Of a stretch of DNA of 64,000 nucleotides, positions 8,033 through 28,946 are shown in pieces. Both the position numbers and the translations under genes were made by a program. Under the pieces are notes generated by a model. It saw only the letters and a list, made by a program, of their open reading frames with translations. It made no database searches and was not told where the DNA came from. Source of the DNA: an uncultured Acidobacteriota bacterium (GTDB lineage Bacteria; Acidobacteriota; UBA6911; CAINFC01). Where the stretch lies: NCBI GenBank assembly GCA_964617125.1, contig CAZTVS010000004.1, forward strand, positions 12,196 to 76,195. Reading direction: 5' to 3'. The stretch's first letter is position 1; every line of letters starts with the position of its first letter.

Positions 8033-8075
8033 ATAGAATCGGTGTGTTTCTTCATTTCCTCCATAAGCCGGGTGG

Positions 8076-12046: not shown

Positions 12047-12175
12047 TTTTATCTCCCAACCCTGTTCCTGTCATTAAAGTACAGGGTTTATCATACAATG
12101 AGGAAGCCATATAATCTGATGGATATTTAGCAATGACAGGATTCACTATTGGTGCTTAGTAAAAAATTCAATTCT

Positions 12176-13207: not shown

Positions 13208-13223
13208 AAAAAATAAAACCCGT

Positions 13224-14714
13224 ATGAATACCATCAACAGGGTTGAATTGTTGCATATCGCCAAATCGTTCGGCGGAGTCAGGGCTTTGAAAGATGTGAG
13301 TCTGCAAGTTCAACCGGGTGAGGTGCACGCTTTGCTGGGTGAGAACGGTGCCGGGAAATCTACCCTGATGAAGGTTCTTTCGGGAGCCCATCAAAAGGAC
13401 AGCGGCAAAATCCTTATCGACGGTCACGAGGTACACATCAAGAACACAGCCGACAGCAAAAAACTGGGGATCGGAATCATTTATCAGGAGTTTTCCCTTG
13501 TACCCGATTTGTCGGTTTCCGAAAATATCTACCTGAACCGGCTGAACAGGCATTTCCGGGTACCCTGGAAGAAGATCGCCAGGGATTCTTCCGAACTGAT
13601 TCAAAGAATGGGATTCAACATCGATCCTCTTCGTAAAGTGAGTTCCTTGACCGTAGCCGAACAACAGATTGTTGAAATAGCGAAAGCCCTGTCGGAAAAA
13701 GTAAAAGTCCTGATCCTGGATGAGCCATCGGCTGTGTTGGGAACCAGGGAGATCGAAAGACTATTCGCGATCATCAGAGAATTAAAAGAGCAGGATGTGT
13801 CCGTCATTTATATTTCGCACCATCTCAGTGAAATCTTTTCTATTGCCGACAGGGTTACGGTCATTAAAGATGGTGTGACGGCAGGAAGCCGCTATATCAA
13901 TGAGACCGATAAGGATTCCCTGATCGCCCTGATGCTGGGCCGGAACCTTGGAACTATGTTTGCGGAAAGAACGGTCCAACCGGGCGAAGAGATCATCTCA
14001 GTCCAGAACATCCGTTATAAAGACCGGGTGAAAGATGTTTCGTTCTCCATACGCTCGGGTGAGGTGCTCGGCCTCGCCGGCCTGGTTGGGAGCGGAAGAA
14101 CGGAAGTGGCAGAAACTGTTTTCGCGGCAGTGAAAAAAGATAAAGGAACCATAAGGCTGAACCACAGAGAGGTCAACGCCGGTTCACCCAGCGGGTCGGT
14201 AAAACTGGGAATCGGGATGGTGAATGAAGACAGAAAACAGAAAGGAGTTCTGCTCGATCTTCTGGTTTCACAAAATATCACACTTACCAGTTTGGGATCC
14301 GTCAGTAACCGGTTGGGATTTATTAACAGGAAAAAGGAGAAGAAGATTGCAGAGGAACTGATTGCAAGGTTGAGGATCAAAGTTTCCGGCCGGGAAATGA
14401 TCGTGGGTAATTTAAGCGGCGGCAACCAGCAAAAAGTCGCCATAGCCAAATGGGTGAACCGGAGCTGCCAATTTTTAATTGTTGATGAACCAACCCGGGG
14501 AGTGGATGTCGGCGCCAGGGTGGAAATTTATGCTTTGATCAATGAACTGGCGGAAAGCGGGGTGGCGATCCTGGTCATTTCCTCGGAGACCAGTGAACTG
14601 ATGGGATTGTGTGATCGGATCCTGGTGATGAAAAACGGATCCGTACAGGGGGCGTTATCGAAAAATGAATTTTCGGAAGAACAAATATTACGACTGGCTA
14701 TTGGAGTTCGATAG
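13224..14714 (+). CDS. Sugar ABC transporter ATP-binding protein with duplicated NBDs (RbsA/MglA-like)
   Basis: Walker A GENGAGKSTLMKVLSG and signature LSGGNQQKVAIAKW. Two nucleotide-binding domains in 496 aa. Confidence 0.85.
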   Translation: MNTINRVELLHIAKSFGGVRALKDVSLQVQPGEVHALLGENGAGKSTLMKVLSGAHQKDSGKILIDGHEVHIKNTADSKKLGIGIIYQEFSLVPDLSVSENIYLNRLNRHFRVPWKKIARDSSELIQRMGFNIDPLRKVSSLTVAEQQIVEIAKALSEKVKVLILDEPSAVLGTREIERLFAIIRELKEQDVSVIYISHHLSEIFSIADRVTVIKDGVTAGSRYINETDKDSLIALMLGRNLGTMFAERTVQPGEEIISVQNIRYKDRVKDVSFSIRSGEVLGLAGLVGSGRTEVAETVFAAVKKDKGTIRLNHREVNAGSPSGSVKLGIGMVNEDRKQKGVLLDLLVSQNITLTSLGSVSNRLGFINRKKEKKIAEELIARLRIKVSGREMIVGNLSGGNQQKVAIAKWVNRSCQFLIVDEPTRGVDVGARVEIYALINELAESGVAILVISSETSELMGLCDRILVMKNGSVQGALSKNEFSEEQILRLAIGVR

Positions 14715-14719
14715 ACAGA

Positions 14720-15679
14720 TTGAACGAAATAGAAATACCTGCCATGACAAAAAAGTATATTCAGCTTCTGATTCAATATAATACGGAAGTCATCTTTTTC
14801 ATCATGCTGTTCGTATCGGCATGTTTCTCGGATGCTTTCTTCACTACTTCCAATCTTTTCAACCTCCTCCGACAGGTAACACCCGTAGGGATTATCAGCA
14901 TGGGGATGTTGCTGGTCATACTGACCGGCGGAATTGATTTGAGCGTGGGATCGGTTGTAGCCACGTCAGGAGTGTTGGTTGCTTTTTTCACACAGCTGAT
15001 GGACTGGCCCTCTTCCGTATTTCTAAGCTTGACTGCGGGTCTGGTCGTCGGGTTCATATCCGGTTTTTTTGTTGCCTATCAGAAAATGGCTCCCTTTATC
15101 GTGACACTGGCTCTGATGACAATTGTCAGGGGGACCGGTTTTATTATTTCCAAGGGAGCTCCGATTATGGTTCATGAAGATGAGCTGGCCCTGGTTCATT
15201 TCGGAAGCGGATATTTTCTTGGCCTGCCTAATCCGGCCATCGTCCTGTTTGCTGTTTTCGGAATCGTTCTGGTGATATTAAACTACAATGTCTTTGGACG
15301 GGTTGTGATCGCGATCGGAAGCAATGAAGAGGCAGTGCGCCTGTCGGGGATCAAGGTACAGCGGTATAAGTTTGCCGTTTATATGATTGCCGGTGTTTTA
15401 TCTTCCCTTGCAGGAATTATGTTGGTATCAAGATCCTCCGTCGGTTCACCCGTCATGGCGATAGGAATGGAACTCGATGTGATTGCGGCCGTGGTCATAG
15501 GAGGTGCTTCGCTGAAAGGGGGGAAGGGATCTGCCCTGAATACCCTTCTGGGCGTTCTCATCTTAGGCATGATCGGAAATATCATGAACTTAAAGAACGT
15601 ACCTGCCTATCCGCAGCAGGTCATCAAAGGAGTAATCATTTTATTTGCCGTTTTGCTTCAGCGTTACCAGGAGAAATAA
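14720..15679 (+). CDS. Sugar ABC transporter permease (RbsC-like)
   Basis: 319-aa hydrophobic ORF that sits after the binding-protein and ATPase genes. The start could be TTG at 14720 or ATG at 14744. Confidence 0.75.
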   Translation: MNEIEIPAMTKKYIQLLIQYNTEVIFFIMLFVSACFSDAFFTTSNLFNLLRQVTPVGIISMGMLLVILTGGIDLSVGSVVATSGVLVAFFTQLMDWPSSVFLSLTAGLVVGFISGFFVAYQKMAPFIVTLALMTIVRGTGFIISKGAPIMVHEDELALVHFGSGYFLGLPNPAIVLFAVFGIVLVILNYNVFGRVVIAIGSNEEAVRLSGIKVQRYKFAVYMIAGVLSSLAGIMLVSRSSVGSPVMAIGMELDVIAAVVIGGASLKGGKGSALNTLLGVLILGMIGNIMNLKNVPAYPQQVIKGVIILFAVLLQRYQEK

Positions 15680-15699
15680 TTGACCATACAGAGAAAGAT

Positions 15700-16722
15700 A
15701 TGAGACAGGCAGTTATGACAGCACCCGGGAAGATTGTGTTCCGGGAGGCAGAAAAACCGGGGCCTTTAAAAGAGAAGGAAATATTGCTTTGTATCCGAAG
15801 AATTGGTATCTGCGGCTCGGATATTCATGTTTATCACGGAAAACATCCGGCAACCCCATACCCGGTGGTCCAGGGTCATGAGTATTCCGGTGTGGTGGAA
15901 GCGATAGGAAGTGCCGTAACCCGGGCCAGGGTAGGTATGCAGGCTACGGCAAGGCCCCAACTGGTTTGCGGGAAATGCGGCCCGTGTTTAAGAGGACAAT
16001 ACAACGCCTGTCAGAACCTGAAGGTACAGGGATTCCAGGCTCCAGGTGTGGCTCAGGATTATTTTGTCGTTGAGGAAGACCGCCTGGTGGTGCTTCCCGA
16101 TTCCATGAGCCTCGACCAGGGGGCCATGGTGGAACCCGCTTCCGTAGGGGCGCATGCGACCGGGCGGGCCAATGATTTAAGGGGTAAAAATGTCGTGGTC
16201 AGCGGGGCCGGAACCATCGGGAACATGGTGGCGCAATTCGCCAAGGCAAGAGGGGCCAAAAAAGTGCTGATCACCGACCTGAGTGAATACAGGCTGGCCA
16301 GGGCGAAGGAATGTGGTATTGATGAAGTGCTCAGTCTTAGGGGAACCGCCTTCGCCGAGGGGGTTAAAAAGTGCTTTGGGAAGGAGGGATTCCAGGCAGG
16401 CTTTGAATCGGCCGGAGTGCAGGCTTCCCTCGATGTCCTGATTGAGAATATCGAAAAAGGGGGTGACGTCGTCATCCTTGGAGTGTATGCAAAAAATCCG
16501 GTTGTAAACATGTATTACGTCGGAGAACATGAATTGAATCTCTTTGGATCCATGATGTACCGTCAGGAAGATTACCTGCTGGCCGTCGATAGCATAGCCT
16601 CCGGAAAGATCAAGACCGCACCGTTGTTGACCGATCGTTTCCCGTTTGAGAAATATGCGGAGGCATATCGGCATATTGAAAACCAGGGCGACAAAACCTT
16701 AAAAGTGATCATCGACCTGTAA
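15700..16722 (+). CDS. Zinc-dependent medium-chain alcohol/polyol dehydrogenase (sorbitol/L-iditol dehydrogenase-like)
   Basis: Contains GICGSDIHVYHG (zinc ADH signature) and a structural-zinc Cys cluster (CGKCGPCLRGQYNAC). A Rossmann motif (GAGTIG) is also present. Confidence 0.8.
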   Translation: MRQAVMTAPGKIVFREAEKPGPLKEKEILLCIRRIGICGSDIHVYHGKHPATPYPVVQGHEYSGVVEAIGSAVTRARVGMQATARPQLVCGKCGPCLRGQYNACQNLKVQGFQAPGVAQDYFVVEEDRLVVLPDSMSLDQGAMVEPASVGAHATGRANDLRGKNVVVSGAGTIGNMVAQFAKARGAKKVLITDLSEYRLARAKECGIDEVLSLRGTAFAEGVKKCFGKEGFQAGFESAGVQASLDVLIENIEKGGDVVILGVYAKNPVVNMYYVGEHELNLFGSMMYRQEDYLLAVDSIASGKIKTAPLLTDRFPFEKYAEAYRHIENQGDKTLKVIIDL

Positions 16723-16735
16723 TATTTTTTAAGAC

Positions 16736-18205
16736 ATGCGACTTAACCAAAACACCCTTTCCAGACTGGATAAGCGAATCCATATTCCAACGTATGCTCG
16801 TTCCTCTTTATCGGCCGGAATGGTTCACATTGGTCTTGGGAATTTTCACCGGTCCCACCAGGCGTATATCATGGACCGATACATGCAGGAAACAAATGCC
16901 ACCGACTGGGGTATTTGCGCCATAGGATTACTCCCGCAGGACGAATCCATCTGCAAAAGAATGGAACAGCAGGATTGTTTATATACACTTTCGGAGAAAA
17001 AAGAGGACGGAACCGTTAAGGTGAGTGTCATTGGTTCCATTATTCAATGTTTGCATGCCCCGCCGAATCCGCAGGCGGCCATGAACCGGATGGCCGCACC
17101 GGAAACCAGGCTGATCACACTGACCATTACGGAAGGGGGTTACAACTTCGATTCTTCTACGGGTCGGTTTCTGTCGGATCATCCGCTTGTACTATGGGAC
17201 ATGGAAAATCCCGGAACCCCCAAAACGGTATTTGGCTACCTGTCGGGTGCACTGGACCGGAGAAGGAAATCAGGTTCGGGTAGGGTTACCATCCTGTCGT
17301 GCGATAATATCCAGCACAACGGGGATATACTGCGGAAGATGCTCCTGACCTATATATCGTTGGCGTATCCCGATTTGAAAGAGTGGGTTCTGGAAAATGT
17401 CGCTTTCCCCAACAGCATGGTGGACAGGATTACTCCCGCATCGGTCAGAGAGGATACAGATTTTTTAGCGCATACATTTCAAATCGAAGATCTTTGTCCT
17501 GTTGTCTCGGAACCTTTTTTCCAGTGGGTTGTGGAAGACAATTTTAAAAACGATCGGCCCCTGCTGGAAACGGTGGGTGCAGAATTCGTGAGGAATGTTA
17601 CCCCTTATGAAAACATGAAGCTGAGACTATTGAATGCAGGACATTCCTTCCTGGGTTTTCTGGGGAAACGGGCAGGTTGCCGGTTCATTCATGAAGCGGT
17701 CGCCGACCCATCCATCTTGGATTCCCTTATGAAATTTTATAACGAGGAAGCTGTTCCCAATATCGACGATTTTCAGGTCTCGGAATTGAATGATTACGTG
17801 AAGACGCTGATCGGCCGATTTGGAAATCCGTATATCAGGGATTCCGTTGACAGGATACTTTCAGGCTCCTCTGCGAAGATTCCGAAATTCCTGATACCCA
17901 CCATATCCGACCAGATGCTAAAAGATCAAAAGGCCGAAATGGGCGTTTTGGTTATCGCTGCGTGGTATTGCTATCTGGAGAGCATGGGTGACCCGGCAGA
18001 AATACAGGATGACATGGGCACTCTGCTCTTTGAAAAAGTACATAATCAGGGTTCCCGGGGTCATCTGGAATTCATTGAAACGGTTCCTGTTTTTGGCGAC
18101 CTGGCAAAAAATATTTCCTTTGTCAACCAGTATGAGTCGGCTCTTAGCCATCTTCACTGCCAGATTCCACCTCCGACTTCTGGCTGCAATAGCCGGAAGC
18201 CTTAA
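16736..18205 (+). CDS. Mannitol dehydrogenase family oxidoreductase (fructuronate/mannonate reductase UxuB / mannitol 2-dehydrogenase-like)
   Basis: The N-terminus (VHIGLGNFHRSHQAYIMD) matches the mannitol-dehydrogenase Rossmann domain. 489 aa, which is typical for the family. Confidence 0.7.
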   Translation: MRLNQNTLSRLDKRIHIPTYARSSLSAGMVHIGLGNFHRSHQAYIMDRYMQETNATDWGICAIGLLPQDESICKRMEQQDCLYTLSEKKEDGTVKVSVIGSIIQCLHAPPNPQAAMNRMAAPETRLITLTITEGGYNFDSSTGRFLSDHPLVLWDMENPGTPKTVFGYLSGALDRRRKSGSGRVTILSCDNIQHNGDILRKMLLTYISLAYPDLKEWVLENVAFPNSMVDRITPASVREDTDFLAHTFQIEDLCPVVSEPFFQWVVEDNFKNDRPLLETVGAEFVRNVTPYENMKLRLLNAGHSFLGFLGKRAGCRFIHEAVADPSILDSLMKFYNEEAVPNIDDFQVSELNDYVKTLIGRFGNPYIRDSVDRILSGSSAKIPKFLIPTISDQMLKDQKAEMGVLVIAAWYCYLESMGDPAEIQDDMGTLLFEKVHNQGSRGHLEFIETVPVFGDLAKNISFVNQYESALSHLHCQIPPPTSGCNSRKP

Positions 18206-18327
18206 CCATATTCGCTGATGGCATAGGCTTTTTAAGCCTGTAAGATCGATATCCGGGAGCTCTTTCCAATCCGTTCAGGAAATAGGGTGCCGAAGAGAAA
18301 GAAACCCTTCAGGCTGGGAAGCGGATT

Positions 18328-20010
18328 TCAATCGGAGGAGAAGATTTGCATACCCTCCAGCAGGACGGCTCCGGCGGGGAGGGGAGGATCGATGGCCAGT
18401 TTTCCGGAATGGTCCACTCTCTCGCACAGTACCGATTCCTGTACCTTCAAGGAATGGAGAAAATACTCTTTGATCGCTTGGATGCGATTCTTGGCCATTT
18501 CGGATTCTTCCGGCGAGGGGGCCTCGCAGTAAATGACCATTCGAAAATCGATTCCGGAACGGTCCAGCCGCCGATAAAAATCGGCCAGTTTCTGCTGTAT
18601 TTCCAGGGTAAGCCGGATGGTGCCTTTTTTAAACCGGGAAAAATCGAGAACCAGGGAATACTCCGGGGCCCGTAGGCGGCTCTCTCCCTCGATGCGCACT
18701 GGCCGGGCCAGTCGCGTACTCAGCAGGTTTTGCAGTATCTGCCGTCCCTGTTCCGTAACCGGTTGAGCGGATTCCATGGCACAGCGCAGAATCATAGGCC
18801 GGTCGGTGGATTCCAGAACGATTTGCGTCTGCTGCAGCCGTATGTCCGGCAGTACGGAGAAGGTTTCCCGGGCTGCCTGGGAGATGGAATCCAGAATCCT
18901 CTGCTCGAAGTTACGCAAGGGCATACGGGCTATCTCGGCGCGTACATATTCGCGAACCGCCTCTCCGCCGCCTTTCAGGATATCGAGCTTGCGGGCGGTG
19001 TCTCCTACTCCGGCCTCTTCCACAATGATCTGCTGTATGTCCAGCCGAACACTTTTTCCGATTCTTGCCGACAGGCTTCGGGATACGTCGTCGATGGTTT
19101 CCTTATCGAAGCGATTGATGGTATGGATGATCACCTCGATAGGGACCGGATCCTGGGTTTCGTCGAAGTTCATCTCGACGATCCGGGATTTTTTCTTTTG
19201 TTCCATTTCGTTTTGCAGGATTCGGGAGATTTCCCGCTGTAAACGGGCGTGTCCCGCGGCCAGGGAGAGAGTGTGGATCAGCGGGATGGACATGAGAATC
19301 AATACGATAGATGCCACCAGGATGCGGTTTCGTACCATCAGCCGGTGTTTCTGTGGCACCATCTGCTGCCGCGGGCGAAAACCGGCCACCAGGAAGATCA
19401 GATCGGCGCTGATGATGATCGACATCAGGTTGGTGAAAAACAGCATGAAACCGCCGGAAGCCACCTGCCATTGCATGGTGCTCAGTCCATAGCCGACCAC
19501 GGCCAACGGCGGCATGATGGCGGTGGCGATGGCCACCCCGGGAATGATGGTCAATCCTTTCTGCCATTTGACCAGGGCCACCGTTCCCGCGATACCGGAA
19601 AAGAAGGCAATGAGCAGATCCATCAGATTGGGGTGGGTACGAGCCAGAATCTCCGGGGTCAATTCCTTCAGGGGAGAAAGCCAGGTTGCTATCGCGGCAA
19701 TGGTAATAGCCTCGATAACGCTCAGCAGGACATTCTTCAGAGCCTTTTTGCCCAGCTGCCAGTCCGCCAGGGTCAAGGCCAGTCCGCAACACAGGATGGG
19801 TCCCATCAACGGGGAGATAAGCATGGCGCCGATGATGACCGCCGGGCTGTTGGTCAGCAGTCCCAGAAGGGCGATCATACAGGCCAGGAATAGCATCAGC
19901 AGGTAGGTCGGCCCGAAGCGCCTGCTTTCATCGATTTCCCGATAAATCTCCTCCAGTTGCGAGTCGTCCAGCTGTGGAAAAAGCACCTGGTAAATCTGCA
20001 TTATGCCCAT
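18328..20010 (-). CDS. DUF389-family integral membrane protein with a large C-terminal soluble domain
   Basis: The TM core (ISPLMGPILCCGLAL…) is typical of DUF389/TIGR00341. The six-frame ORF extends to 20538, but that N-terminal extension is Arg-rich junk overlapping the upstream gene. A real ATG (MGIMQIYQ) lies 2 nt after the upstream stop. Confidence 0.6.
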   Translation of the reverse strand: MGIMQIYQVLFPQLDDSQLEEIYREIDESRRFGPTYLLMLFLACMIALLGLLTNSPAVIIGAMLISPLMGPILCCGLALTLADWQLGKKALKNVLLSVIEAITIAAIATWLSPLKELTPEILARTHPNLMDLLIAFFSGIAGTVALVKWQKGLTIIPGVAIATAIMPPLAVVGYGLSTMQWQVASGGFMLFFTNLMSIIISADLIFLVAGFRPRQQMVPQKHRLMVRNRILVASIVLILMSIPLIHTLSLAAGHARLQREISRILQNEMEQKKKSRIVEMNFDETQDPVPIEVIIHTINRFDKETIDDVSRSLSARIGKSVRLDIQQIIVEEAGVGDTARKLDILKGGGEAVREYVRAEIARMPLRNFEQRILDSISQAARETFSVLPDIRLQQTQIVLESTDRPMILRCAMESAQPVTEQGRQILQNLLSTRLARPVRIEGESRLRAPEYSLVLDFSRFKKGTIRLTLEIQQKLADFYRRLDRSGIDFRMVIYCEAPSPEESEMAKNRIQAIKEYFLHSLKVQESVLCERVDHSGKLAIDPPLPAGAVLLEGMQIFSSD

Positions 20011-20012
20011 GA

Positions 20013-20717
20013 TTATAAATGATGGAAATCGTCTTCTTCCACCTCTTTCTTCTTCTCCACCCTTTCCTCGATGATCCGCCGGGCGACATCCCTGCCGCCA
20101 AGGCCGAAGGCGATCGCCAGGCTGAGCATGACCGAACCGAAGGCGATGGAGAAGGCGGCGGTGACGATGTTGCCGGCGATCTTCAATTCTTCCAGGGCCA
20201 TGGCAAAAGCAAGGATGAAGATGGTGTATTTGACGATCGATCCGATGATCCGGGGAGAAGGAAAATTCCTGTTGACCGCCGTAAGCAGGGCGGCTCGGGA
20301 CAGAAAGGCTCCGATCAACATCCCGAGGATCAGGATGAAAAGGGCCATGATCAGATTGGGCAGGTACAGGAAAATCTTGGAGATCATCTCCCGGAAGATT
20401 TCCAGGCCCAGGGCATTCAGCCCGAAAAAGACCACAAACAGGAATACAACCCAGAAGATCATTTTTCCGGCCAGAATACGGGGAGGAGTTTGAATGTCGG
20501 CGCGACTGAGCACATGGGTCAGCCCGGAATTGCCGCAATAGCGATCAAATCTGGCCATCCGTAAAGCCCGGCAAACCGACCAGCTTAAAAGTTTTGCCAG
20601 TACCCATCCGGAAAAAAAGAGGATGACCAGGGCCAGGAAGCCGGGCAGAAACGCCGTCAAACCTTCCTGGTAGCTTTTCCAAACGACCGATAAGGTATCG
20701 ATGAACATATCCGTCAT
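20013..20717 (-). CDS. Small membrane protein with repeated 'conserved TM helix' segments (MscS-like N-terminal type)
   Basis: Hydrophobic repeats (ALFILILGMLIGAF…, ILAFAMALEELKIAGNIV…) with an acidic C-terminal tail. The start ATG at 20715-17 is preceded by AGGAGGAAAAG and overlaps the upstream stop (ATGA). Confidence 0.55.
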   Translation of the reverse strand: MTDMFIDTLSVVWKSYQEGLTAFLPGFLALVILFFSGWVLAKLLSWSVCRALRMARFDRYCGNSGLTHVLSRADIQTPPRILAGKMIFWVVFLFVVFFGLNALGLEIFREMISKIFLYLPNLIMALFILILGMLIGAFLSRAALLTAVNRNFPSPRIIGSIVKYTIFILAFAMALEELKIAGNIVTAAFSIAFGSVMLSLAIAFGLGGRDVARRIIEERVEKKKEVEEDDFHHL

Positions 20718-21997
20718 GTTACTTTTCCTCCTTGGGAATCCCAACGTTCCAGCAGATAAGGCTTGGTCGCTTCATAGCAAAGACATAGATCCTCCAGGCA
20801 GTTTTCGACCTCTTCTGCCTGGGCCTCGGCGTTTTCCAGTACGAAGGAAGCGGTTCGGGCGAGATAGAGCGGAGTGAGCGCTTTCAGGATGTGCTCCCGG
20901 TGGATACGATGGGCACGCCAGGCTAATGCGAAATCGTAAACGGTTCGAACCCAGAGATTTGCAGGATATCGAAACGACGGATTGGGGTTCCGGTCAAGAT
21001 CCCGTATCTCCTTCCAGGTTTCTGCCGACAGGACGATTTCCCAGATGGAAGCGAGATCGCGGACGCCGGATTGAAAATTGGTAATCATCCGTTCTACGTT
21101 GACATGTACCGGTTCCAGTCCGACGGTGTAATTGAAACCGAAAACCGGCACCGGTTCCGTGGTATGTATCTCCCGCCAGAAGGAGTGATAGTTTTCCATC
21201 AATGCGAAAACGGAGCTCACCACCTGGGTCAACATGGCGCTCAGATCGGAGCCGGGATCCTTGGTATCATGGATCTTGGCCCCTAAAAAGGATTGACAGA
21301 CACGGTATCCTCCGGTGATGGCGGTGGTCGTCAGCCATATATCGATGCCGAAACGGGCGACATCGGTATGCCAAACATCCTGCGTCAGATAGTGATCGAT
21401 CAACCGGCCTGAGAATCCGAAGTCTCCTCCGATAGGCTGGCGAACCCGCCGGCCATAAAGCGTTCTGGTCAGCGGATACACGATGCTGTTGGTGATGGTT
21501 CCATCGAACTTGTGGCGGTGATAGAGCGGCGCCACAAAATCGAATTCCTTCTGTAAGACCGGGCGCAGCAGCAGATCGATCCATTCGGGGGTGATGCTCC
21601 TGAGATCCGCATCCACAACGGCACAGGCCCTTGCCTGTAATGCCTCGGCCACCTGCAGAACCAGTCGGATAGCACTCCCTTTTCCCCGTATCCCGTGATA
21701 AGGGGAGATGATGCGGTGAATGGGAAAAAGCGGGTGAGTCACCAGCAGGGTATGGTAGTCCTCGATGTTGGTTCGGCTCACTACCGCAGGGGTATCGTCG
21801 GTCGATCCTCCATCGGAATTGATCAGAATGGCCCGGGATTCGGGGAAATATTTGGCGAATCCAAGCTGTATAGCCCGGACGACATGCCCTATGGTTCGGG
21901 CATTGTTGTAACTGGGTATACCGACTACGATATCCGCCGTGCCGATCTCGCCGAGCTGTTGCTGCACTTCTTTGGATAACGTTGATTTCTGGATCAT
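20714..21997 (-). CDS. GT-A fold glycosyltransferase (family 2-like; possibly a glycosyl-glycerate-pathway transferase)
   Basis: The N-terminus (VVGIPSYNNARTIGHVVRAI…INSDGGSTDDTPAV) fits a GT-A nucleotide-sugar binding region. 427 aa. The start overlaps the upstream stop (ATGA). Confidence 0.6.
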   Translation of the reverse strand: MIQKSTLSKEVQQQLGEIGTADIVVGIPSYNNARTIGHVVRAIQLGFAKYFPESRAILINSDGGSTDDTPAVVSRTNIEDYHTLLVTHPLFPIHRIISPYHGIRGKGSAIRLVLQVAEALQARACAVVDADLRSITPEWIDLLLRPVLQKEFDFVAPLYHRHKFDGTITNSIVYPLTRTLYGRRVRQPIGGDFGFSGRLIDHYLTQDVWHTDVARFGIDIWLTTTAITGGYRVCQSFLGAKIHDTKDPGSDLSAMLTQVVSSVFALMENYHSFWREIHTTEPVPVFGFNYTVGLEPVHVNVERMITNFQSGVRDLASIWEIVLSAETWKEIRDLDRNPNPSFRYPANLWVRTVYDFALAWRAHRIHREHILKALTPLYLARTASFVLENAEAQAEEVENCLEDLCLCYEATKPYLLERWDSQGGKVT

Positions 21998-22926
21998 GTG
22001 CCTGTTTCCTCACACTCTGAACAGGATCGAACGGAAAGGGTGGAAGCCGGCGGATTTCCTTCCAACAAGGGGACCACCATGTCCAGTACGGCCCGATTCC
22101 ATCCGACCGGACCTATCCCGGGTGCCAGGCTTATCTCAGGTATTCGGGCTGTCAGATCGGGATGGTACTGCCCTCCGAGACGCTGCACCAGGATCGGGAG
22201 ATCTACGGTCTGTAACATGGGAAGGTCATTGGGGCTATCTCCGATCCCTACAGTAACGATGGCCGGCAGTTTTTTGCGGAACAGGTGGACGGCGGTTCTG
22301 ATCGCATGGCCCTTATTGTTGTTGCCGGTGACGTGGAAAAAACGGCCGCCACGGGTGATGGTTAATCCTTCCCGAGCGGCGGCCGCAAGGATTCTCTCCA
22401 TCTTGTACTCTTCCGAAGACGGCAGCAGAAAGGGTTCGTCATACTCTCTTGCCTTGGCTCTCTCCGCTTGCAAAAGGGAAAATCCACACATACAGGCGAT
22501 CTCGACCGCTTGCAGATCGTGAAATCCGGTGAGAGGGATATTCAGCTCTTTCCGTATGCGGGAGAGAAAATCGACCAGTTTGCGGTACGGCACTCCCAGT
22601 TCGACCCGGATCCAGCGACGGACATCGTATTGCGAAGAATCGGCGATTCCGGCAATGCTTTCCGGAAAGTAAACCGCCCCGCCGTTCTCTACGATGAAAG
22701 GATGCTGAAAGTCCAGCTCCTCCAGGATGGGTAAAAGCTCCGCACGGGTTTTACTGGAGCAGGGAACCAGGTAGATCGGCAGGGATCGTATGCGATCCAG
22801 TGCCGGACGGGCCGCTTCCCAGGAGTAGGTGGTTTCCTCCAGCAGAGTGCCGTCCAGATCGGTGAAAAGGATGATGGCTCTGGTTTCCGACATGACTGTC
22901 TCCTCCTTTTCCTTGGACCGGATCAT
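21994..22926 (-). CDS. HAD-IIB phosphatase of the mannosyl-3-phosphoglycerate phosphatase (YedP/MpgP) family
   Basis: ILFTDLDGTLLEETTYSWEAARPALDRIRSLPIYLVPCSSKTRAEL closely resembles the YedP/MpgP N-terminus. HAD motif I (DLDGT) is present. ATGA overlaps occur at both ends. Confidence 0.6.
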   Translation of the reverse strand: MIRSKEKEETVMSETRAIILFTDLDGTLLEETTYSWEAARPALDRIRSLPIYLVPCSSKTRAELLPILEELDFQHPFIVENGGAVYFPESIAGIADSSQYDVRRWIRVELGVPYRKLVDFLSRIRKELNIPLTGFHDLQAVEIACMCGFSLLQAERAKAREYDEPFLLPSSEEYKMERILAAAAREGLTITRGGRFFHVTGNNNKGHAIRTAVHLFRKKLPAIVTVGIGDSPNDLPMLQTVDLPILVQRLGGQYHPDLTARIPEISLAPGIGPVGWNRAVLDMVVPLLEGNPPASTLSVRSCSECEETGT

Positions 22927-24131
22927 GCATTGTCCAGTTTGACCGCTTCTTTCAGTTCGTCCAGGAAGGTCGGCAAAGCCGAGGTGATCCGGTTCCAGTT
23001 CGGGATCAGGGGTTGTCCCAGCGGATCCTCCATGAAGGCCTCTCCGGCGATGCGAACGCTTTTCGCAAAGGTTTCTACGGCCACCTCTTCTTCATGCCGG
23101 TCGAAATAGAGTCCATTGATGGCGGCATCGGCATGGTACCGTGTGATGGTATCTTCGGCGATGCGTATATAGGTCGACAGTAAGGTGCGGAAAACCCCTG
23201 AGGAGAAGACCGCTCCTTCGGCGGAGAGCGTCCGCAACATCGTTTTAGTGATATCGACGGCCATTTTCATCAGACCTTTCCCCGGATCGGTCGGTGAGAG
23301 ATCCTGGTGTTTGTGCTCGTAGTTTCGGCAGAGTTCCGTCTGACAGACCCGCTTGACGGAACAGTTGCGGTGGATTTCAGCCAGGACGCCCACCTCCAGG
23401 CCCCAGTCTGCAGGGATACGGTTGACTCGGGCCAGGTCCGTTCTCATGGCAAACTCACCGGATAGGGGATAACGGAAGCTGTCCAGAAAAACCAGGAAAG
23501 GCAGCTGTCCGAATATCTTTTGCAGGGCACGGATCAGGGGAGTCATCAGCAGACGGGTGACACGGCCATGCATGCGGTCGGTGACCCGGGCATAAAAGCC
23601 CTTGCTGAATTCGAAGTTGATGTTGGGATTGGTGATCGGATAGCAGAGCCGGGCCAGCAATTCCCGATTGTAGGTCAGGACATCGCAATCGTGGAGAGCA
23701 ATGACCTCACTCTTGCGATCGGCCAGGATGTATCCGTAGGCCATCCAGCAGGAACGCCCCTTTCCCCGGTCTCCGATGGGTAGATTGTTCTCCCGCAGCC
23801 GATCCATCAGGGCCAGTATGCGCGGTCCGCTGTTCCATATAAAACGAACTTCCTGAGGGAGTGCGGACATCATGGAGCGCGCATAGGTATACTGTTCGCG
23901 GTCGGCGGCATCGAGGGTTACGACGATCTGTCGCAGATAGGGAACCGTTTTCAGCTCTTCCAGGATGGATGGCAGTGCTTTTCCTTCGAATTCACGGAAG
24001 AGCGCCGGAAGGACCAGGGCAATCGGACGCTGTTCGGCGTAACCGGTCAGCTCTTTTTCCAGTATCAGATAGTCGTTCTCCACCAGCCGATGCAATGTAG
24101 CGACGATTCCGACTTGATAAAAATCTGACAT
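22923..24131 (-). CDS. Glycosyltransferase, tentatively glucosyl-/mannosyl-3-phosphoglycerate synthase-like
   Basis: 402-aa GT-A-like protein (IALHDCDVLTYNRELL with a DxD-like motif). It lies immediately upstream of, and is translationally coupled to, the MpgP-like phosphatase. The specific family is not verified. Confidence 0.45.
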   Translation of the reverse strand: MSDFYQVGIVATLHRLVENDYLILEKELTGYAEQRPIALVLPALFREFEGKALPSILEELKTVPYLRQIVVTLDAADREQYTYARSMMSALPQEVRFIWNSGPRILALMDRLRENNLPIGDRGKGRSCWMAYGYILADRKSEVIALHDCDVLTYNRELLARLCYPITNPNINFEFSKGFYARVTDRMHGRVTRLLMTPLIRALQKIFGQLPFLVFLDSFRYPLSGEFAMRTDLARVNRIPADWGLEVGVLAEIHRNCSVKRVCQTELCRNYEHKHQDLSPTDPGKGLMKMAVDITKTMLRTLSAEGAVFSSGVFRTLLSTYIRIAEDTITRYHADAAINGLYFDRHEEEVAVETFAKSVRIAGEAFMEDPLGQPLIPNWNRITSALPTFLDELKEAVKLDNA

Positions 24132-24146
24132 GGTTTCCTCCTTGGA

Positions 24147-24779
24147 TTATTGGGTTTTGTTTGTTTGGGATGATGTCGGAAGGCGGTTTTTCGCCGAGGT
24201 GCCTGGTATTCCGGAGGTGGCCGTTTGCAGCACCAGATCGAGGTCGAGGGGGAAGCCGGCGGCATAGGCGAAGGAGCGATAACCGGATACCAGTCCAGCC
24301 AGAATGACGGCTTGCTGAAGCACCTCTTCTTTGGGCGATTCCTCGGATCGGGGATGGGATGGCAGATAGCGGGCCATACACCGTATGTAATCGCGAAAGG
24401 CATGGTTCAGTTCCGCCGATCCGCCTTCCAGGAGCAGAAGACCGCGGGACTGGTGGAAAAGTAGGGCATAGTCCGGGTGGTCCCGCCAAAAAGATTCCTG
24501 CTGTACGAGTACTTCCCGGATCCGGTTTTTACCCCGTATGCGGCCGTCGATCTTCTGCAGGTAGGATTTTTCCAGCAGCAGCACTCCCTGAGACAGCAGT
24601 TCGGCAATCAGGCGATTTTTGGAAGGGAAATAATTATAAAAAACCCCTTTGGCCACATCGGCGGCTTCGGTGATATCTTCGACCCGTGTGGCATAAATGC
24701 CATGGCGGGCAAAGCGTTCCATGGCAATCTGCAGAAGATGAAGGCGGGTTTTTTCTTTTTTTCGATCGCGACGGTTCAT
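24147..24779 (-). CDS. TetR/AcrR family transcriptional regulator
   Basis: The N-terminal HTH (LLQIAMERFARHGIYATRVEDITEAADVAKGVFYNYFPSKNRLIAEL) is a canonical TetR_N domain. The gene lies 15 nt upstream of the coupled operon. Confidence 0.85.
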   Translation of the reverse strand: MNRRDRKKEKTRLHLLQIAMERFARHGIYATRVEDITEAADVAKGVFYNYFPSKNRLIAELLSQGVLLLEKSYLQKIDGRIRGKNRIREVLVQQESFWRDHPDYALLFHQSRGLLLLEGGSAELNHAFRDYIRCMARYLPSHPRSEESPKEEVLQQAVILAGLVSGYRSFAYAAGFPLDLDLVLQTATSGIPGTSAKNRLPTSSQTNKTQ

Positions 24780-25266
24780 GAATAATCCTCATAAATGAAC
24801 GAGAGTCATATATGAATCATGTACCATGCAAATCGGACGAAGTCAAACAAAAAAGCTGGGATCGTCAGCCGCCGGAAAAAAGCTAATCCTACTGAAAGCG
24901 ATGAGTCCGATCCTCGATGGAAAGCCCTGCCGTGGCCGAAGACGTCCCTAAACAAACCGAAAGAATGAATCGTAAGGGCAAGGCCGGTCCTTGCCCTGTG
25001 AATTTTCCATTCGTTCCTGCAGTGTCTCTGAAAATTGAGGAGGACATGCGTTACCGGGCTCCTGTCCCCATAACCACGATCACCATGTTTTGGGATCCAA
25101 GACAGAATAGTGGATAGAAATACTCCCAATCCAACTCTGCATTTATTAAATTTTCCCCACTGTTGATACTGATTTATCTGGCATTTTATAAAGAAATACA
25201 ATAAGATATGGAATTCGAGGGTGCATCAGGAGTTGATCGGTTGGTCGATTCTTTCCGGGAGTTTTT

Positions 25267-27957
25267 ATGTATCGATCTGCATTAAAGCAGTATGTGGAAT
25301 CTTTAAAACAACTACCTACTCTGCCGCCTGTGGCTGTCAAATTGATCGAAATCGCCGGGAAGGATAACACCAACCTGCAGGAAATCATCCAATTAATCGA
25401 AGTCGACCCGGCATTATCTTCCAAAATTTTATTCGTCAGCAATTCTATTCACTTCAATGCCTGTAGAAAAGTAAGTACTGTCGGACATGCGGTCAACCTG
25501 ATGGGGATCAACCTGATTCGTACGATCACCCTGTCTTTAATCGTTTTTCGTTTGTTCAAAGATCTGCCCAGCGGTACCAAGTTCGATCTGGCGGGTTTCT
25601 GGCATCATTGTATCGCCACCGCCATAGCCGCCGAACTTCTGGCACAACGATTCGATTATCCGCAACCCCAGGAGGCCTTTACCGCCGGATTGTTACATGA
25701 TATAGGCAAGCTGGTTCTCTACCAATGGAACAATACGCTCTACGAACAAACGCTGGAAGATGCTCAAAGTGAATCGATGAGGCTCCTGGAAAAAGAAGAG
25801 ATCGTTTATGGTATCGGTCATACCGATATCGCTTACCATCTGATGACGCACTGGCGTTTTCCGGAGCCTTTGGCCATGGCGGTCTGGTTGCATCATCAAC
25901 CGGCCGATCAACTGGATCGAAGAAAGGGAATGAGACTCCCCTGGATTGTCAAGTGTGCCAACTGTCTGTGCAATATTCAGCGGTTTGGATGCAGCGGCGA
26001 TCTCTTTGCCGAAGACGATACCCATCGTCTTTCGGAACTTTCCGGGCTGAGCAGCAAAGAAATCGATTCCCTGAGCCGGGAGATACTGAATCGATTTGAA
26101 GAGGTTTCCGGCTGGTTTGATTTTAAAGGGACTTCTCTCGAGCTCTATCTATCCGCAGTCAATCAAGCCAACAATGAGATTAGCCGCATTATGACCGACA
26201 TGACCGAAAACAACCATCGTTTAGCACAACAGTGCCAGGTGCTGGATGCCATCCGGAGGATGACGGAATCCCTGCCGAATTCCATTACTTCCAGCCGTGC
26301 TTTACTAACCATCCTTGAGTTGTTGAGTGCTACCGCCAGGCATCATCGTATACTCGGTTTTATTCCCCGTCCGGAAGCGAAAGCTCTGGAAGGCTATATG
26401 AAAGTCGATTTTCAGTCGCCATGGGAAAAGATACTGCTGCCCATTCGTTGCGACCTGACGATCGATTATACCCGTCTCTCGCAACGCCAGCAGGTTTCCT
26501 TGGTGGAAAAGGCCGTGGCCGATCTGGGTAACCAGGTGGCCGTAGGTGTGGAAGTTGCCGCCGCCCTGGCCGGCATGGAGATCAGTGCCGCTTTGCATGA
26601 AGGCAAACTGATTGTCCTCTCCATGGAGGCCAACGGCAGCAATCAAGGACAGATCCTCCTGGAACTGGCCGATGCCGTCTGGGACAATCGGGAGAGCATC
26701 GACCTCTTACGCCAGTTTGGCCGGGCGGCAGGATTGGCACTGCAAAAAATACTCCTGCAGGAAGCCAATCAACAGCAGGCAGACGAGCTGGTGCGGACTA
26801 TCCGGCAAATCGAGGAGGCAAAAACAAAACTGATACACATGGAACGATTGTCTTCCGTCGGACGTCTGGCCGCCGGAGCCGCTCATGAAATCAACAATCC
26901 GCTCACGGTGATATCCGGAAGGGCACAGCTCCTCTTTTCCCATGCGGCCAACGAGAGCGAGAAGAGATCGCTGCGGCTGATCATCGAACAGTCGGCACGA
27001 ATCGCCAAGATCATTCACGATATGATGGGATTGGCCCGTCCGGCGGAACCCAAGTTCGAATCGATTGCCATCGAGCCGATCATCAGCCATGTGGTCAGTC
27101 TCCTGAGCCAGCGGATGAAGAGTACGGGCATCCTGCTGCAGGAGGAATATGCATCCGATTTACCGCCGGTTTATGCGGATGAGAAACAGATGGAGCAGGT
27201 ATTTCTCAACCTGATGGTCAATGCCATTCAGGCCATGAACGAGGGTGGTGTTTTAGGGATCGCCATCCGCGCGGAGAAGGGGAACAAAAAGATCCGGGTC
27301 GAGATCAGCGATACCGGCGTCGGCATTCGGGAAGAAGATTTGAAATCGGTTTTCGATCCCTTCTTCACCACCAAGAAGGATGGAGAAGGCAACGGCCTCG
27401 GATTGGCCATCTGTCAATCGATCGTGCTTTCCCACCAGGGAGAGATCGGAGTGAGCAGCCGTCTGGGGCAGGGTTCCACCTTTCGTATCACGCTTCCGGC
27501 CACATCCTGTCTGTTGCCGCAATCCGTCTCCGATAAATCAAACCTCTACAACCTGGCATGGAAACAGGCAGACCATTCTCTCGGCTCTATCCTGGTGGTC
27601 GATGATGAAGAAGATATCTGTCACATCATAGAGGACGCTCTCACCCTAAAAGGTTACCGGATTGAAACCGCCAGGGATGGGGTTCAGGGACTGGAGAAGG
27701 TGGGACGGCAGTATTTCGATCTGATGTTGTTGGACCTGCGTATGCCGAAAAAGGCCGGGTTGGAGGTGTTGAAAATCACGCGCAAGACTCACCCCAATCT
27801 TCCGATCGTGATCATCAGCGGTGTGGCTCATGAGAGTGAATTTACCGAAGCTCTGAAGTTGGGAGCCAGCGCCTGTCTGAAAAAACCGTTCGATATCCTG
27901 GAGTTGCTCTCCATCATCAAATCCTTGCTGCATCCGGCCGAATCGATGAAAGCATAA
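25267..27957 (+). CDS. Hybrid signalling protein: HDOD domain, histidine kinase (HisKA+HATPase), and a C-terminal receiver domain
   Basis: The N-terminal HDOD (LPTLPPVAVKLIEIAG…GLLHDIGKLVL) is followed by an H-box (AAGAAHEINNPL) and N/G boxes (NLMVNAIQAM…DTGVGI…GLGLAI). The receiver domain (ILVVDDEEDI…DLRMP) completes the protein. Confidence 0.85.
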   Translation: MYRSALKQYVESLKQLPTLPPVAVKLIEIAGKDNTNLQEIIQLIEVDPALSSKILFVSNSIHFNACRKVSTVGHAVNLMGINLIRTITLSLIVFRLFKDLPSGTKFDLAGFWHHCIATAIAAELLAQRFDYPQPQEAFTAGLLHDIGKLVLYQWNNTLYEQTLEDAQSESMRLLEKEEIVYGIGHTDIAYHLMTHWRFPEPLAMAVWLHHQPADQLDRRKGMRLPWIVKCANCLCNIQRFGCSGDLFAEDDTHRLSELSGLSSKEIDSLSREILNRFEEVSGWFDFKGTSLELYLSAVNQANNEISRIMTDMTENNHRLAQQCQVLDAIRRMTESLPNSITSSRALLTILELLSATARHHRILGFIPRPEAKALEGYMKVDFQSPWEKILLPIRCDLTIDYTRLSQRQQVSLVEKAVADLGNQVAVGVEVAAALAGMEISAALHEGKLIVLSMEANGSNQGQILLELADAVWDNRESIDLLRQFGRAAGLALQKILLQEANQQQADELVRTIRQIEEAKTKLIHMERLSSVGRLAAGAAHEINNPLTVISGRAQLLFSHAANESEKRSLRLIIEQSARIAKIIHDMMGLARPAEPKFESIAIEPIISHVVSLLSQRMKSTGILLQEEYASDLPPVYADEKQMEQVFLNLMVNAIQAMNEGGVLGIAIRAEKGNKKIRVEISDTGVGIREEDLKSVFDPFFTTKKDGEGNGLGLAICQSIVLSHQGEIGVSSRLGQGSTFRITLPATSCLLPQSVSDKSNLYNLAWKQADHSLGSILVVDDEEDICHIIEDALTLKGYRIETARDGVQGLEKVGRQYFDLMLLDLRMPKKAGLEVLKITRKTHPNLPIVIISGVAHESEFTEALKLGASACLKKPFDILELLSIIKSLLHPAESMKA

Positions 27958-27977: not shown

Positions 27978-28946
27978 TCAGATGTTATCGGAATCGGCCA
28001 TGTGAAAGGGAACTCGCGTGATCCGGGCGAAATCCGTAGAAGGATCCAGGAGGCGGATGACTACCGGTTTTTTCCGTACGGCGGCAAAGCCATGGCCCGC
28101 CAGAGAGATCGGATCCAGGATGGCGGTCTGCACCCAGGCGGCCATCAGGGAAATTCCCCGTCGATGAAAATATCTCCTGGCCGACTGCAGCGCGTTTAAA
28201 ATTCCATTTCTGTTTCCCCGGCCTTGTATCTGGTCGGCAAGATAGCCGATCTTTCGGTGCCCCCAAAAACCCTCTTTCAGTACCAAATGGTCGGGGCTGA
28301 AATGATAGGAATCCGGGTTGGCGATAAAGCGCCAGCGCAAATACTCTTCATCATGAACGATCTCGAGGATATCCTGTGCCTGTACCGATTTCTCTTCAGC
28401 CATCAGGGAGGACAGGAGCGTCGGAGTCTTTTTCTCCGTGTCTACTCCTTCCCTCCGGTATCGATGGGATTTCCATGGGAAGGGACAGCAATACCCGAGA
28501 ACCATCTGCACCCGGCAATGAGGAAGTTCCGAGAATCCGAGTTTGTGCCGGAAAACCGGATAGGAAATGGGATTGGGTGTTCCGTAGAGGAGACGGATCC
28601 CTTTCTGCCGGGCCTCCTCCAGGATCATATCTGCCAGCGTGCGAAAGATGCCCTGGCCCTGAAATTCCCGGGAGACGAAAGCGTCATCGATTTCTGCGCC
28701 GAGCAAGGACTCTCCATGGAGACGGATTCGCTTGGGTGTCAGGGCGAAACATCCGACTAATCGCCCGTTCTCTTCGGCCAGGGCGATGCTGCCCCGGCCG
28801 AAAGGGTTGAGGTCATTTCGCCAGAGGTAATATTCCGGCTCCTGCGATCGTCTCAAGGAGGGATGTCTCGGATCCAGGAAGGTTTTGGTGAAGCGGGACA
28901 AGGCCGGCGCATCCTCCGCAGAAAAGAAACGGTATTTAATGGTCAT
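27978..28946 (-). CDS. GNAT family N-acetyltransferase
   Basis: GNAT core (IDDAFVSREFQGQGIFRTLADMILEEARQKGIRLLYGTPNP). The probable start is the internal ATG at 28944-46 (MTIKYRFF…). The longer ORF to 29186 overlaps the upstream gene. Confidence 0.65.
   Translation of the reverse strand: MTIKYRFFSAEDAPALSRFTKTFLDPRHPSLRRSQEPEYYLWRNDLNPFGRGSIALAEENGRLVGCFALTPKRIRLHGESLLGAEIDDAFVSREFQGQGIFRTLADMILEEARQKGIRLLYGTPNPISYPVFRHKLGFSELPHCRVQMVLGYCCPFPWKSHRYRREGVDTEKKTPTLLSSLMAEEKSVQAQDILEIVHDEEYLRWRFIANPDSYHFSPDHLVLKEGFWGHRKIGYLADQIQGRGNRNGILNALQSARRYFHRRGISLMAAWVQTAILDPISLAGHGFAAVRKKPVVIRLLDPSTDFARITRVPFHMADSDNI

Follow-up and report, generated by a model that had tools for sequence, protein, structure and literature searches.

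A TetR-headed gene cluster of an uncultured acidobacterium for predicted glucosylglycerate synthesis, and the conserved pairing of its putative glucosylglycerate synthase with an MscS-like membrane domain

Introduction

Glucosylglycerate (GG) is a widespread stress solute and, additionally, the primer of mycobacterial methylglucose lipopolysaccharide (MGLP). The gpgS, gpgP and ggs genes of Persephonella marina reportedly lie in one operon-like structure. This organism has both the GpgS/GpgP and the GgS route to GG (PMC3736172), the reaction of GgS being that of ADP-glucose with D-glycerate (PMC3736172). Where related solutes are made by two routes, these are regulated differently, as noted in a study on R. 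baltica (PMC3736172). MggA, the known second glycosyltransferase (GT) of mannosylglucosylglycerate synthesis, belongs to family GT4 (PMC3736172). In the case of another osmolyte, ectoine, certain biosynthetic clusters contain genes of MscS-type channels, and the accepted interpretation combines synthesis upon osmotic up-shock with a release valve upon down-shock (PMC13342039). Here we describe a gene cluster in a 64,000-nucleotide (nt) stretch of DNA of an uncultured Acidobacteriota bacterium (contig CAZTVS010000004.1; further on, the window), which encodes, in the order of transcription, a TetR-family regulator, a GpgS-type GT, a HAD phosphatase, a second GT of 427 amino acids (aa; GT427), a membrane protein with "conserved TM helix" domains (TMh) and a membrane protein of the DUF389 family. 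We consider it rather likely that this is a TetR-headed operon making GG by two routes, in which the production of GG would be tied, through TMh, to the condition of the membrane.

Results

GT427, a putative glucosylglycerate synthase (GgS), and TMh represent a conserved two-gene unit, in which TMh is a near-obligate, translationally coupled partner across phyla. Representative genomes scanned with GgS yielded eight loci (57-67% identity) in metagenome-assembled genomes (MAGs) of Acidobacteriota, Thermodesulfovibrionia and Nitrospirota, and the TMh gene was directly 3' of the GgS gene in seven of them. A scan of metagenomes with the TMh alignment gave 80 loci, 68 of which had at least 300 nt of upstream sequence; a GgS homologue (29-67% identity) was encoded immediately upstream of TMh, on the same strand, in all but two of these (66/68). 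One exception is a divergent TMh without the C-terminal motif described below, and the other (L028) is considered in the Discussion. On one metagenome contig (L074) two separate GgS-TMh pairs are present, at 5874-7805 (+) and 15785-12992 (-). One of them is of the window type and is preceded by a gene of an MpgP-like HAD protein (GgS 57% identical), and the other is of a divergent type (37% identical).

The distance from the GgS stop codon to the TMh start codon in 74 pairs is mostly between -4 and +26 nt, with a mode of +7 (35 loci). At the +7 spacing the TGA of GgS falls within the TMh Shine-Dalgarno sequence GTGAGG, and such a position of a stop codon inside the ribosome-binding site of the next gene is the classic layout of translational coupling. 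In the window the start codon of TMh overlaps the GgS stop codon (ATGA), and GGAGGA is located 8 nt upstream. The distance matrices of GgS and TMh are correlated with r = 0.96, as compared with 0.64-0.66 for either protein versus the adjacent TreS, and the partial correlation given TreS is 0.93. Taken as sequence data, these results indicate co-inheritance and correlated divergence, which are compatible with a physical interaction of the two proteins. The tie of a GT operon to a membrane protein, regarded as unusual in an earlier reading of this DNA made from sequence alone (further on, the sequence-only reading), is both real and unusual for TMh, which is conserved next to GgS. No description of the GgS-TMh pairing was found in the searchable literature on PF05552 or on glucosylglycerate and mechanosensitive channels. 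A protein of 441 aa (P0372), in which GgS residues 1 to ~218 are joined to TMh from residue ~22, may be a genuine fusion of the two, but has rather the look of a product of deletion or of a chimeric assembly, and was not used as evidence.

In searches with profile hidden Markov models (HMMs), TMh matched PF05552 twice and NF033912, a model of an MscS-type subfamily, with 83.5 bits (cutoff 100). Its AlphaFold monomer model (predicted local distance difference test, pLDDT, 76.8; predicted template modelling score, pTM, 0.51) consists of five transmembrane (TM) helices and a short C-terminal amphipathic helix. Residues 115-187 were aligned by hhalign (E 7e-4) with residues 24-98 of Escherichia coli MscS, a segment that takes in TM1, TM2 and the first part of TM3. 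Foldseek gave local matches to MscS (probability 0.63-0.82; for 6vyk_A, a root-mean-square deviation of 2.8 Å over 93 columns) and no global match. Neither PF00924 (the beta domain) nor PF21082 matched TMh, which stops at residue 234, 27 residues past TM5; the canonical MscS encoded next to the pair in locus L012, unlike TMh, carries all three MscS domains. As judged by these comparisons, TMh appears clearly to descend from the MscS lineage, yet without its defining cytoplasmic beta/alpha-beta cage. In 26 TMh homologues (44-94% identity) TM4, TM5 and the GLGGRD kink are nearly invariant, and the cytoplasmic C-terminus has a conserved acidic tail, DE-x-S-(P/H)-L. That the TM core is so strongly conserved speaks more for a functional assembly in the membrane than for a passive anchor.

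The TMh profile retrieved 609 cluster representatives at E<=1e-30, and about one-third of the best 150 listed were repeat proteins of ~500 aa, not proteins of TMh length. P0394, P0397, P0401 and about 50 others (490-680 aa) contain at least four PF05552 repeat units and the GLGxR(E/D) end, without the MscS beta domain. TMh can be described as the short form of this larger, uncharacterised PF05552 repeat family, represented by 3,946 cluster representatives at E<=1e-10.

GT427 has at least 8000 homologues. JGI gives the name "glucosylglycerate synthase" to several of them that have 64-67% identity, and its generic name for many members of the family is "glycosyltransferase involved in cell wall biosynthesis". 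The similarity of GT427 to the GpgS model PRK13915 is weak (E 3.5e-13), and it is otherwise weakly GT2-like. BLASTP aligned it with the neighbouring GpgS at 22% identity over the catalytic core (E 8e-4), with the RGKG (104-107) and DXD (VDADL, 128-132) regions of GT427 matched to those of GpgS. A Glycos_transf_1 (GT4) domain was not found in GT427 by HMM searches, none of the curated Pfam/NCBIfam models matched it as GgS, and a sequence search of PDB returned nothing meaningful (best E 0.22). By its sequence, GT427 is most readily described as a distant GT-A paralogue of GpgS, and we assign it as a putative glucosylglycerate synthase (EC 2.4.1.268), the enzyme of the one-step route. This assignment is supported by context, as the gene of GlgC (ADP-glucose pyrophosphorylase) is directly upstream of the GgS homologue in L011 and L013 (Thermodesulfovibrionales). 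The gene order GpgS-HAD-GgS occurs in the window, L001, L008, L021 and L050. A role of GT427 as MggA (mannosylglucosyl-3-phosphoglycerate synthase) was also considered and rejected, since MggA is a GT4 enzyme and GT427 is of the GT-A type.

The setting of the pair in other loci is consistently that of compatible-solute and alpha-glucan metabolism. A TreS-like GH13 gene is directly upstream of the pair in 50 loci, and the recurring neighbours include genes of MalQ (21 loci, in 14 of which it is downstream and convergent), TreY (11), OtsA-like (7), maltokinase-like (7) and TreT-like (6) proteins, and GpgS (5). Within 4.5 kb of GgS-TMh a GpgS gene was found in 2 of 29 loci and a HAD gene in 3 of 29. 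Thus, the GgS-family gene is usually without GpgS/GpgP nearby, which indicates no general dependence on a neighbouring supply of GG or glucosyl-3-phosphoglycerate (GPG). Genes of flippases, polymerases, lipid-carrier proteins or acyltransferases did not recur among the surveyed loci. A complete MscS is encoded between GpgS and GgS-TMh in L012. Apart from the window, the full five-gene block is found in L001 only, where MscS and Usp genes are upstream, and genes of an SSF symporter and two Na+/H+ exchangers are downstream. The GgS-TMh module appears widespread, being seen across Acidobacteriota and Nitrospirota, usually beside trehalose genes.

Among the Thermodesulfovibrionia/Nitrospirota MAGs, the pair is embedded in trehalose clusters in L010, L011, L013 and L014. 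In L010 the order is TreZ-TreY-GgS-TMh, and the next gene is that of a Na+/Ca2+ exchanger; in both L011 and L013 the order is GH57-TreY-GlgC-GgS-TMh. An upstream open reading frame (ORF) of L010 encodes a 449-aa multi-TM protein that by eye resembles a ClC-type chloride channel.

The products of the two genes that precede GgS in the window can be assigned to the two-step route. The 402-aa GT gave a full-length match to NF040724 (GpgS_Meth; equivalog cutoff 700 bits), with a score of 362.6 bits (E 2.3e-108), in which residues 3-400 correspond to positions 2-398 of the 402 of the model. Solved mycobacterial GpgS chains matched it weakly (E 0.002-0.009, residues 93-279). It contains RGKG at 122-125 and a DXD-type motif, HDCDV, at 147-151, and is 82% identical to its L001 homologue. 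We predict it to be a GpgS-type enzyme (GT81-like GT-A, of the M. burtonii/P. marina type) that would transfer glucose from nucleoside diphosphate glucose (NDP-glucose) to 3-phosphoglycerate. Hence, HMM searches connect the first GT with a GpgS model, below the equivalog level, and give weak GT2- and GpgS-like matches for the second, which settles in part the GT family assignments that the sequence-only reading had left for confirmation.

The HAD phosphatase scored 226.8 bits with TIGR01486, the model of the mannosyl-3-phosphoglycerate phosphatase (MPGP) family (cutoff 164.75), and has HAD motifs I (DLDGT, 23-27) and IV (GDSPND, 229-234; numbering of the 310-aa form). The scores of the equivalog models for the mannosyl-3-phosphoglycerate phosphatase were all below their own cutoffs. 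By these matches the protein is assigned to the MpgP/GpgP family, its specificity for glucosyl- over mannosyl-3-phosphoglycerate being putative. Its membership in the MpgP family, on which the sequence-only reading depended, is borne out by the TIGR01486 score, and so, with the full-length match of the GT to the GpgS model, is the proposal that the two proteins form a glycosyl-glycerate pair.

The product of the last gene matched PF04087 (139.7 bits, E 8e-41), TIGR00271 (146.8 bits, cutoff 146.5) and TIGR00341 (113.9 bits, cutoff 94.75). In its AlphaFold model (pLDDT 80.7) a TM domain (~30-250) comes first, then one more TM helix, and after it three beta-beta-alpha-beta modules. Foldseek matches were weak only, and concerned CDF transporters (E 2.5e-3, template modelling score 0.14-0.28) and ring-building or KH-like domains. 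Of the other TMh loci, 50 extend far enough downstream, and no DUF389 gene was found in any of these; its position after TMh is known in the window and in one related lineage (L001). The two long-form DUF389 proteins are 32% identical, in the TM domain only, as compared with 57-82% for the other four proteins of the block. The long-form family is common, especially in Terriglobales, and its contexts are variable: four other long-form loci have unrelated neighbours. That a long-form DUF389 gene occupies the same slot after TMh in two lineages despite the low identity hints at selection for position. We treat the DUF389 gene as a lineage-specific accessory. In the sequence-only reading both membrane proteins were tightly tied to the GTs; TMh has proved to be the near-obligate partner of GgS, and the absence of DUF389 from all 50 loci removes it from this tie. 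A literature search on DUF389 returned nothing relevant.

The closest homologue of the long-form protein, P0242 (65% identity), is encoded on a 6.8-kb contig of ERZ1426837 and is followed by a Usp gene, a HAD gene with a faint S6PP/Hydrolase_3-type match and another Usp gene. The start of P0242 is overlapped by 4 nt by an incomplete upstream gene. This may be another stress-solute context of this DUF389 subfamily.

The six genes, together with the associated sequence elements (Table 1), are a discrete unit. All six are on the minus strand, from 24779 to 18328, with intergenic gaps of -4 to +29 nt. ATGA motifs are present at 22926-22923, 21997-21994 and 20717-20714, a 2-nt gap precedes the ATG of the DUF389 gene, and the TetR stop codon is separated from the gpgS start by 15 nt containing AAGGAGGA. 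The last two distances are as previously read. The chain of four ATGA-linked genes described in the sequence-only reading needs a correction at one junction. Although the motif is present at all three sites, a strong AGGAGGA is located 7 nt 5' of ATG 22893 (Met12) of the phosphatase gene, and JGI called the phosphatase on an identical contig as a 299-aa protein; the overlap at 22926-22923 therefore probably does not join a true stop codon to a true start codon, and the two genes would be 29 nt apart. ATG 22893 is the more likely true start, as far as can be read from the sequence. Close packing is by itself ordinary for operons, and the feature above chance is that part of the gene order is kept elsewhere.

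Table 1. Genes and sequence elements of the predicted glucosylglycerate unit (window coordinates)
Feature	Position	Strand	Remarks
TetR-family regulator, 210 aa	24147-24779	-	first gene of the unit
GpgS-type GT, 402 aa	22923-24131	-	NF040724 match
GpgP/MpgP-family HAD-IIB phosphatase	21994-22893 (likely start, 299 aa); longest ORF from 22926 (310 aa)	-	TIGR01486
GgS-family GT-A (putative), 427 aa (GT427)	20714-21997	-	homologue annotation; weak GT2/GpgS-like
TMh, five-TM "conserved TM helix" protein, 234 aa	20013-20717	-	PF05552 twice
DUF389/TIGR00341 membrane protein, long form, 560 aa	18328-20010	-	PF04087
Candidate promoter/operator region 5' of the TetR gene	24789-24846	-	read from sequence
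Inverted repeat, possible bidirectional terminator	18197-18230		13-nt arms, 77% complementary, 8-nt spacer

On one side the unit is bounded by a divergent gene of an HDOD hybrid histidine kinase, 25267-27957 (+), and on the other by convergent genes of mannitol dehydrogenase, Zn-ADH and an ABC permease, 14720-18205 (+). The inverted repeat is situated where the DUF389 gene and the mannitol dehydrogenase gene converge. DNA identical to that of the window is present in JGI metagenome 3300022666 and in the Logan assembly SRR6476076.

The TetR assignment is based on a match to PF00440 (TetR_N; 47.6 bits, cutoff 24, E 1.4e-12). At E<=1e-6 the other loci gave no TetR match, and in the closest related block, L001, a GGDEF gene is at the head instead. 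The TetR gene is preceded by a TTGACT hexamer at 24846-24841, and between this hexamer and the TetR start are two candidate operators, TCATATATGA (24815-24806) and TCATTTATGA (24798-24789), both of them copies of TCAT(A/T)TATGA and one a perfect 10-bp palindrome. From these elements, the 24789-24846 region is proposed as a candidate promoter/operator only. A consensus promoter/terminator scan gave no more hits than expected from shuffled sequence and did not flag the elements of this region, and its palindromes were not picked up by a repeat finder. The 467-nt intergenic region between the TetR and histidine kinase genes (24800-25266) had no riboswitch or small RNA match in Rfam, even at E<=1. 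This region also contains terminator-like hairpins at 24975-24997 (9 bp, six GC pairs) and, with a T-run, at 24870-24854, just upstream of the putative -35 element, as well as a 131-aa ORF, 24806-25201 (-), without a Pfam match.

Several other features of the window deserve mention. The operon is adjoined by a convergent cluster for polyol/sugar-alcohol utilisation, 12149-18205 (+), encoding a periplasmic binding protein, an ABC ATPase, a permease, a Zn-dependent dehydrogenase and the mannitol dehydrogenase. A 2,112-aa ORF, 1694-8032 (+), and the following 557-aa ORF, 7963-9636 (+), are without a Pfam match at E<=1e-5 and are directly 3' of the gene of a DUF4062/HATPase_c_4/Fic-like_C protein (149-1648). 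Together they could make up a locus of defence or conflict. At 27978-30180 (-), ORFs of a GNAT acetyltransferase (402 aa) and a polysaccharide deacetylase with a faint GH57 match (414 aa) overlap by ~250 nt when counted from their longest starts, and their true starts are probably farther downstream.

Discussion

In the reading that we consider rather likely, GpgS would condense NDP-glucose with 3-phosphoglycerate and GpgP would then remove the phosphate, while GgS would make GG in one step from ADP-glucose and D-glycerate. TMh would act as a tension-gated outlet for GG upon an osmotic down-shift, as in the ectoine clusters with mscS, or, alternatively, as a membrane-bound sensor switching GgS on or off. 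Candidates for the contact with GgS are the conserved cytoplasmic loops of TMh (47-84 and 141-157) and its acidic tail, with -S-(P/H)-L at the end. The data show the protein families, the order of the genes and the conserved, coupled state of GgS-TMh; the substrates, the GgS-TMh contact and the valve or sensor role are those that we infer. As seen from gene linkage and sequence comparisons, a coupled module of synthesis and release or sensing, suggested in the sequence-only reading, is the best available reading for TMh.

Several observations weigh against the proposed operon function or against particular parts of it. The score of GpgS is below the NF040724 equivalog cutoff (362.6 vs. 700), and the GgS label rests on the source annotation, remote homology and context; no curated GgS HMM exists. 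In L028 the gene 5' of TMh is that of a TreT-like trehalose synthase, and GgS is thus not an invariable partner; from this locus, the membrane protein may serve more than one osmolyte GT. A high mirror-tree correlation can come from the co-inheritance of adjacent genes without any contact of their products. The TMh monomer model is of moderate confidence, a pore or an oligomer of TMh would be hypothetical, and the MscS cage that is absent from TMh helps to hold the heptamer together. The presence of a canonical MscS beside the pair in some loci would make a simple release valve redundant. This last observation and the stoichiometric coupling of TMh to one enzyme lead us to lean slightly toward a GgS-specific role of TMh over that of a general safety valve. 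Going further, we may tentatively suppose, as a possibility that is still doubtful, that the cage-less MscS-derived domain binds GgS, and either passes the tension or ionic state to the enzyme or has its vestibule replaced by the enzyme, the two forming a GG synthase-conduit. As a separate observation on L028 (6326-8702), the TMh homologue that follows the TreT-like gene retains the C-terminal ...SLTHV tail.

The presence of two GTs and one phosphatase in one operon would also be expected if the second GT added a hexose to GG or GPG to give mannosylglucosylglycerate (MGG) or glucosylglucosylglycerate, a diglycosylated solute that the sequence-only reading had put forward. Pathways to MGG are known from Petrotoga and Rhodopirellula. 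Glucosylglucosylglycerate is accumulated by P. marina, and we know of no identified synthase for it, which can be taken as pointing in the same direction. We nevertheless find this explanation quite improbable and do not retain it. The known second transferase, MggA, is of GT4 and GT427 is a GT-A protein without a GT4 domain; part of the GT427 family is annotated as GgS by JGI; and most GgS-TMh loci have neither GpgS (2/29) nor HAD (3/29) genes within 4.5 kb, in which case the acceptor would have no nearby source.

The generic cell-wall name given by JGI to many members of the same family, the obligate membrane partner of the GT and the alpha-glucan neighbours (TreS, MalQ, GH57, maltokinase and glycogen phosphorylase) could instead indicate that the GgS-family GT and TMh prime a membrane-linked or exported glucan, e.g., a GG-primed alpha-glucan similar to mycobacterial MGLP, the primer of which is GG. 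Such initiation of a membrane glycan or glycolipid seems unlikely to us, as genes of flippases, polymerases, lipid-carrier proteins and acyltransferases are not recurrent in the loci, the recurring neighbours are mainly osmolyte genes of trehalose synthesis (TreS, TreY/TreZ, OtsA, TreT), the GT of the window sits with GpgS and GpgP, and TMh is like a channel domain, not like a synthase or translocase. That the membrane genes are passengers, merely co-located with the GTs and of independent housekeeping role, is in our opinion very unlikely as an account of both. It is plausible for DUF389, given its absence from the 50 TMh loci, its frequency in unrelated contexts in Terriglobales and its 32% identity to the L001 copy, even if the occurrence of a long-form gene in the same position after TMh in two lineages speaks against it. 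For TMh it is excluded as far as gene linkage shows, by the adjacency in 66/68 and 7/8 loci, the overlap of the stop codon with the ribosome-binding site and the correlation of r = 0.96.

If the operon function that we favour is true, the coupled MscS-derived partner would give a concrete handle on the post-translational control or release of GG. It would also provide the first function for standalone TMh-like PF05552 proteins and indicate that an MscS membrane domain can work without the cytoplasmic cage. At the level of annotation, TMh proteins are now labelled as "hypothetical" or "mechanosensitive channel family", and many GgS homologues as "cell wall glycosyltransferase"; the pairing is a better basis for naming them.

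The enzyme trio of the window is of the already known P. marina type, and the combination of an osmolyte operon with a gene of the MscS lineage is known for ectoine. In the searchable literature we found no description of a cage-less MscS membrane domain, of its near-obligate coupled pairing with one GT family across phyla or of its habitual location in trehalose clusters. The window shares with the gpgS-gpgP-ggs cluster of P. marina (Costa et al. 2007, Fernandes et al. 2007) its three types of enzymes, a ~400-aa GpgS, an MpgP-like HAD protein and a GgS-family GT-A, which are encoded in one direction in a single cluster and would provide both the two-step and the one-step route to GG. As compared with that cluster, it has in addition a TetR gene at the head and the TMh and DUF389 genes at the end. 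The MGG pathway of Petrotoga mobilis and Rhodopirellula baltica (GpgS-MggA-MggB) is similar in that GpgS is the first enzyme and a HAD phosphatase the last, and that the genes can be clustered in an operon-like manner. However, MggA belongs to GT4 and MggB of R. baltica is unrelated to MpgP, whereas the window encodes a GT-A enzyme of the GgS family and a phosphatase of the MpgP family.

Among MscS-type proteins, TMh resembles E. coli YnaI and MscS in the homology of the TM1-TM2-TM3a part and in the Gly/Ala-rich last TM helix followed by a kink (GLGGRD in TMh, GLALQG in MscS). YnaI has a topology of five TM helices, and five are also predicted for TMh. MscCG of Corynebacterium glutamicum, which is of the MscS type, exports an anionic metabolite, glutamate. 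In contrast to both YnaI and MscCG, TMh, known from its sequence and model, is without the cytoplasmic vestibule that defines the MscS family. In the ectoine clusters (Czech et al. 2022; Widderich et al. 2016), as in the window, the genes of solute synthesis are contiguous and co-directional with a gene of the MscS lineage. The genes linked to ect encode complete MscS channels, whereas TMh corresponds to the membrane domain only. The association of ect with mscS is occasional, whereas TMh is tied much more tightly to one particular enzyme gene, to which it is translationally coupled in nearly every locus.

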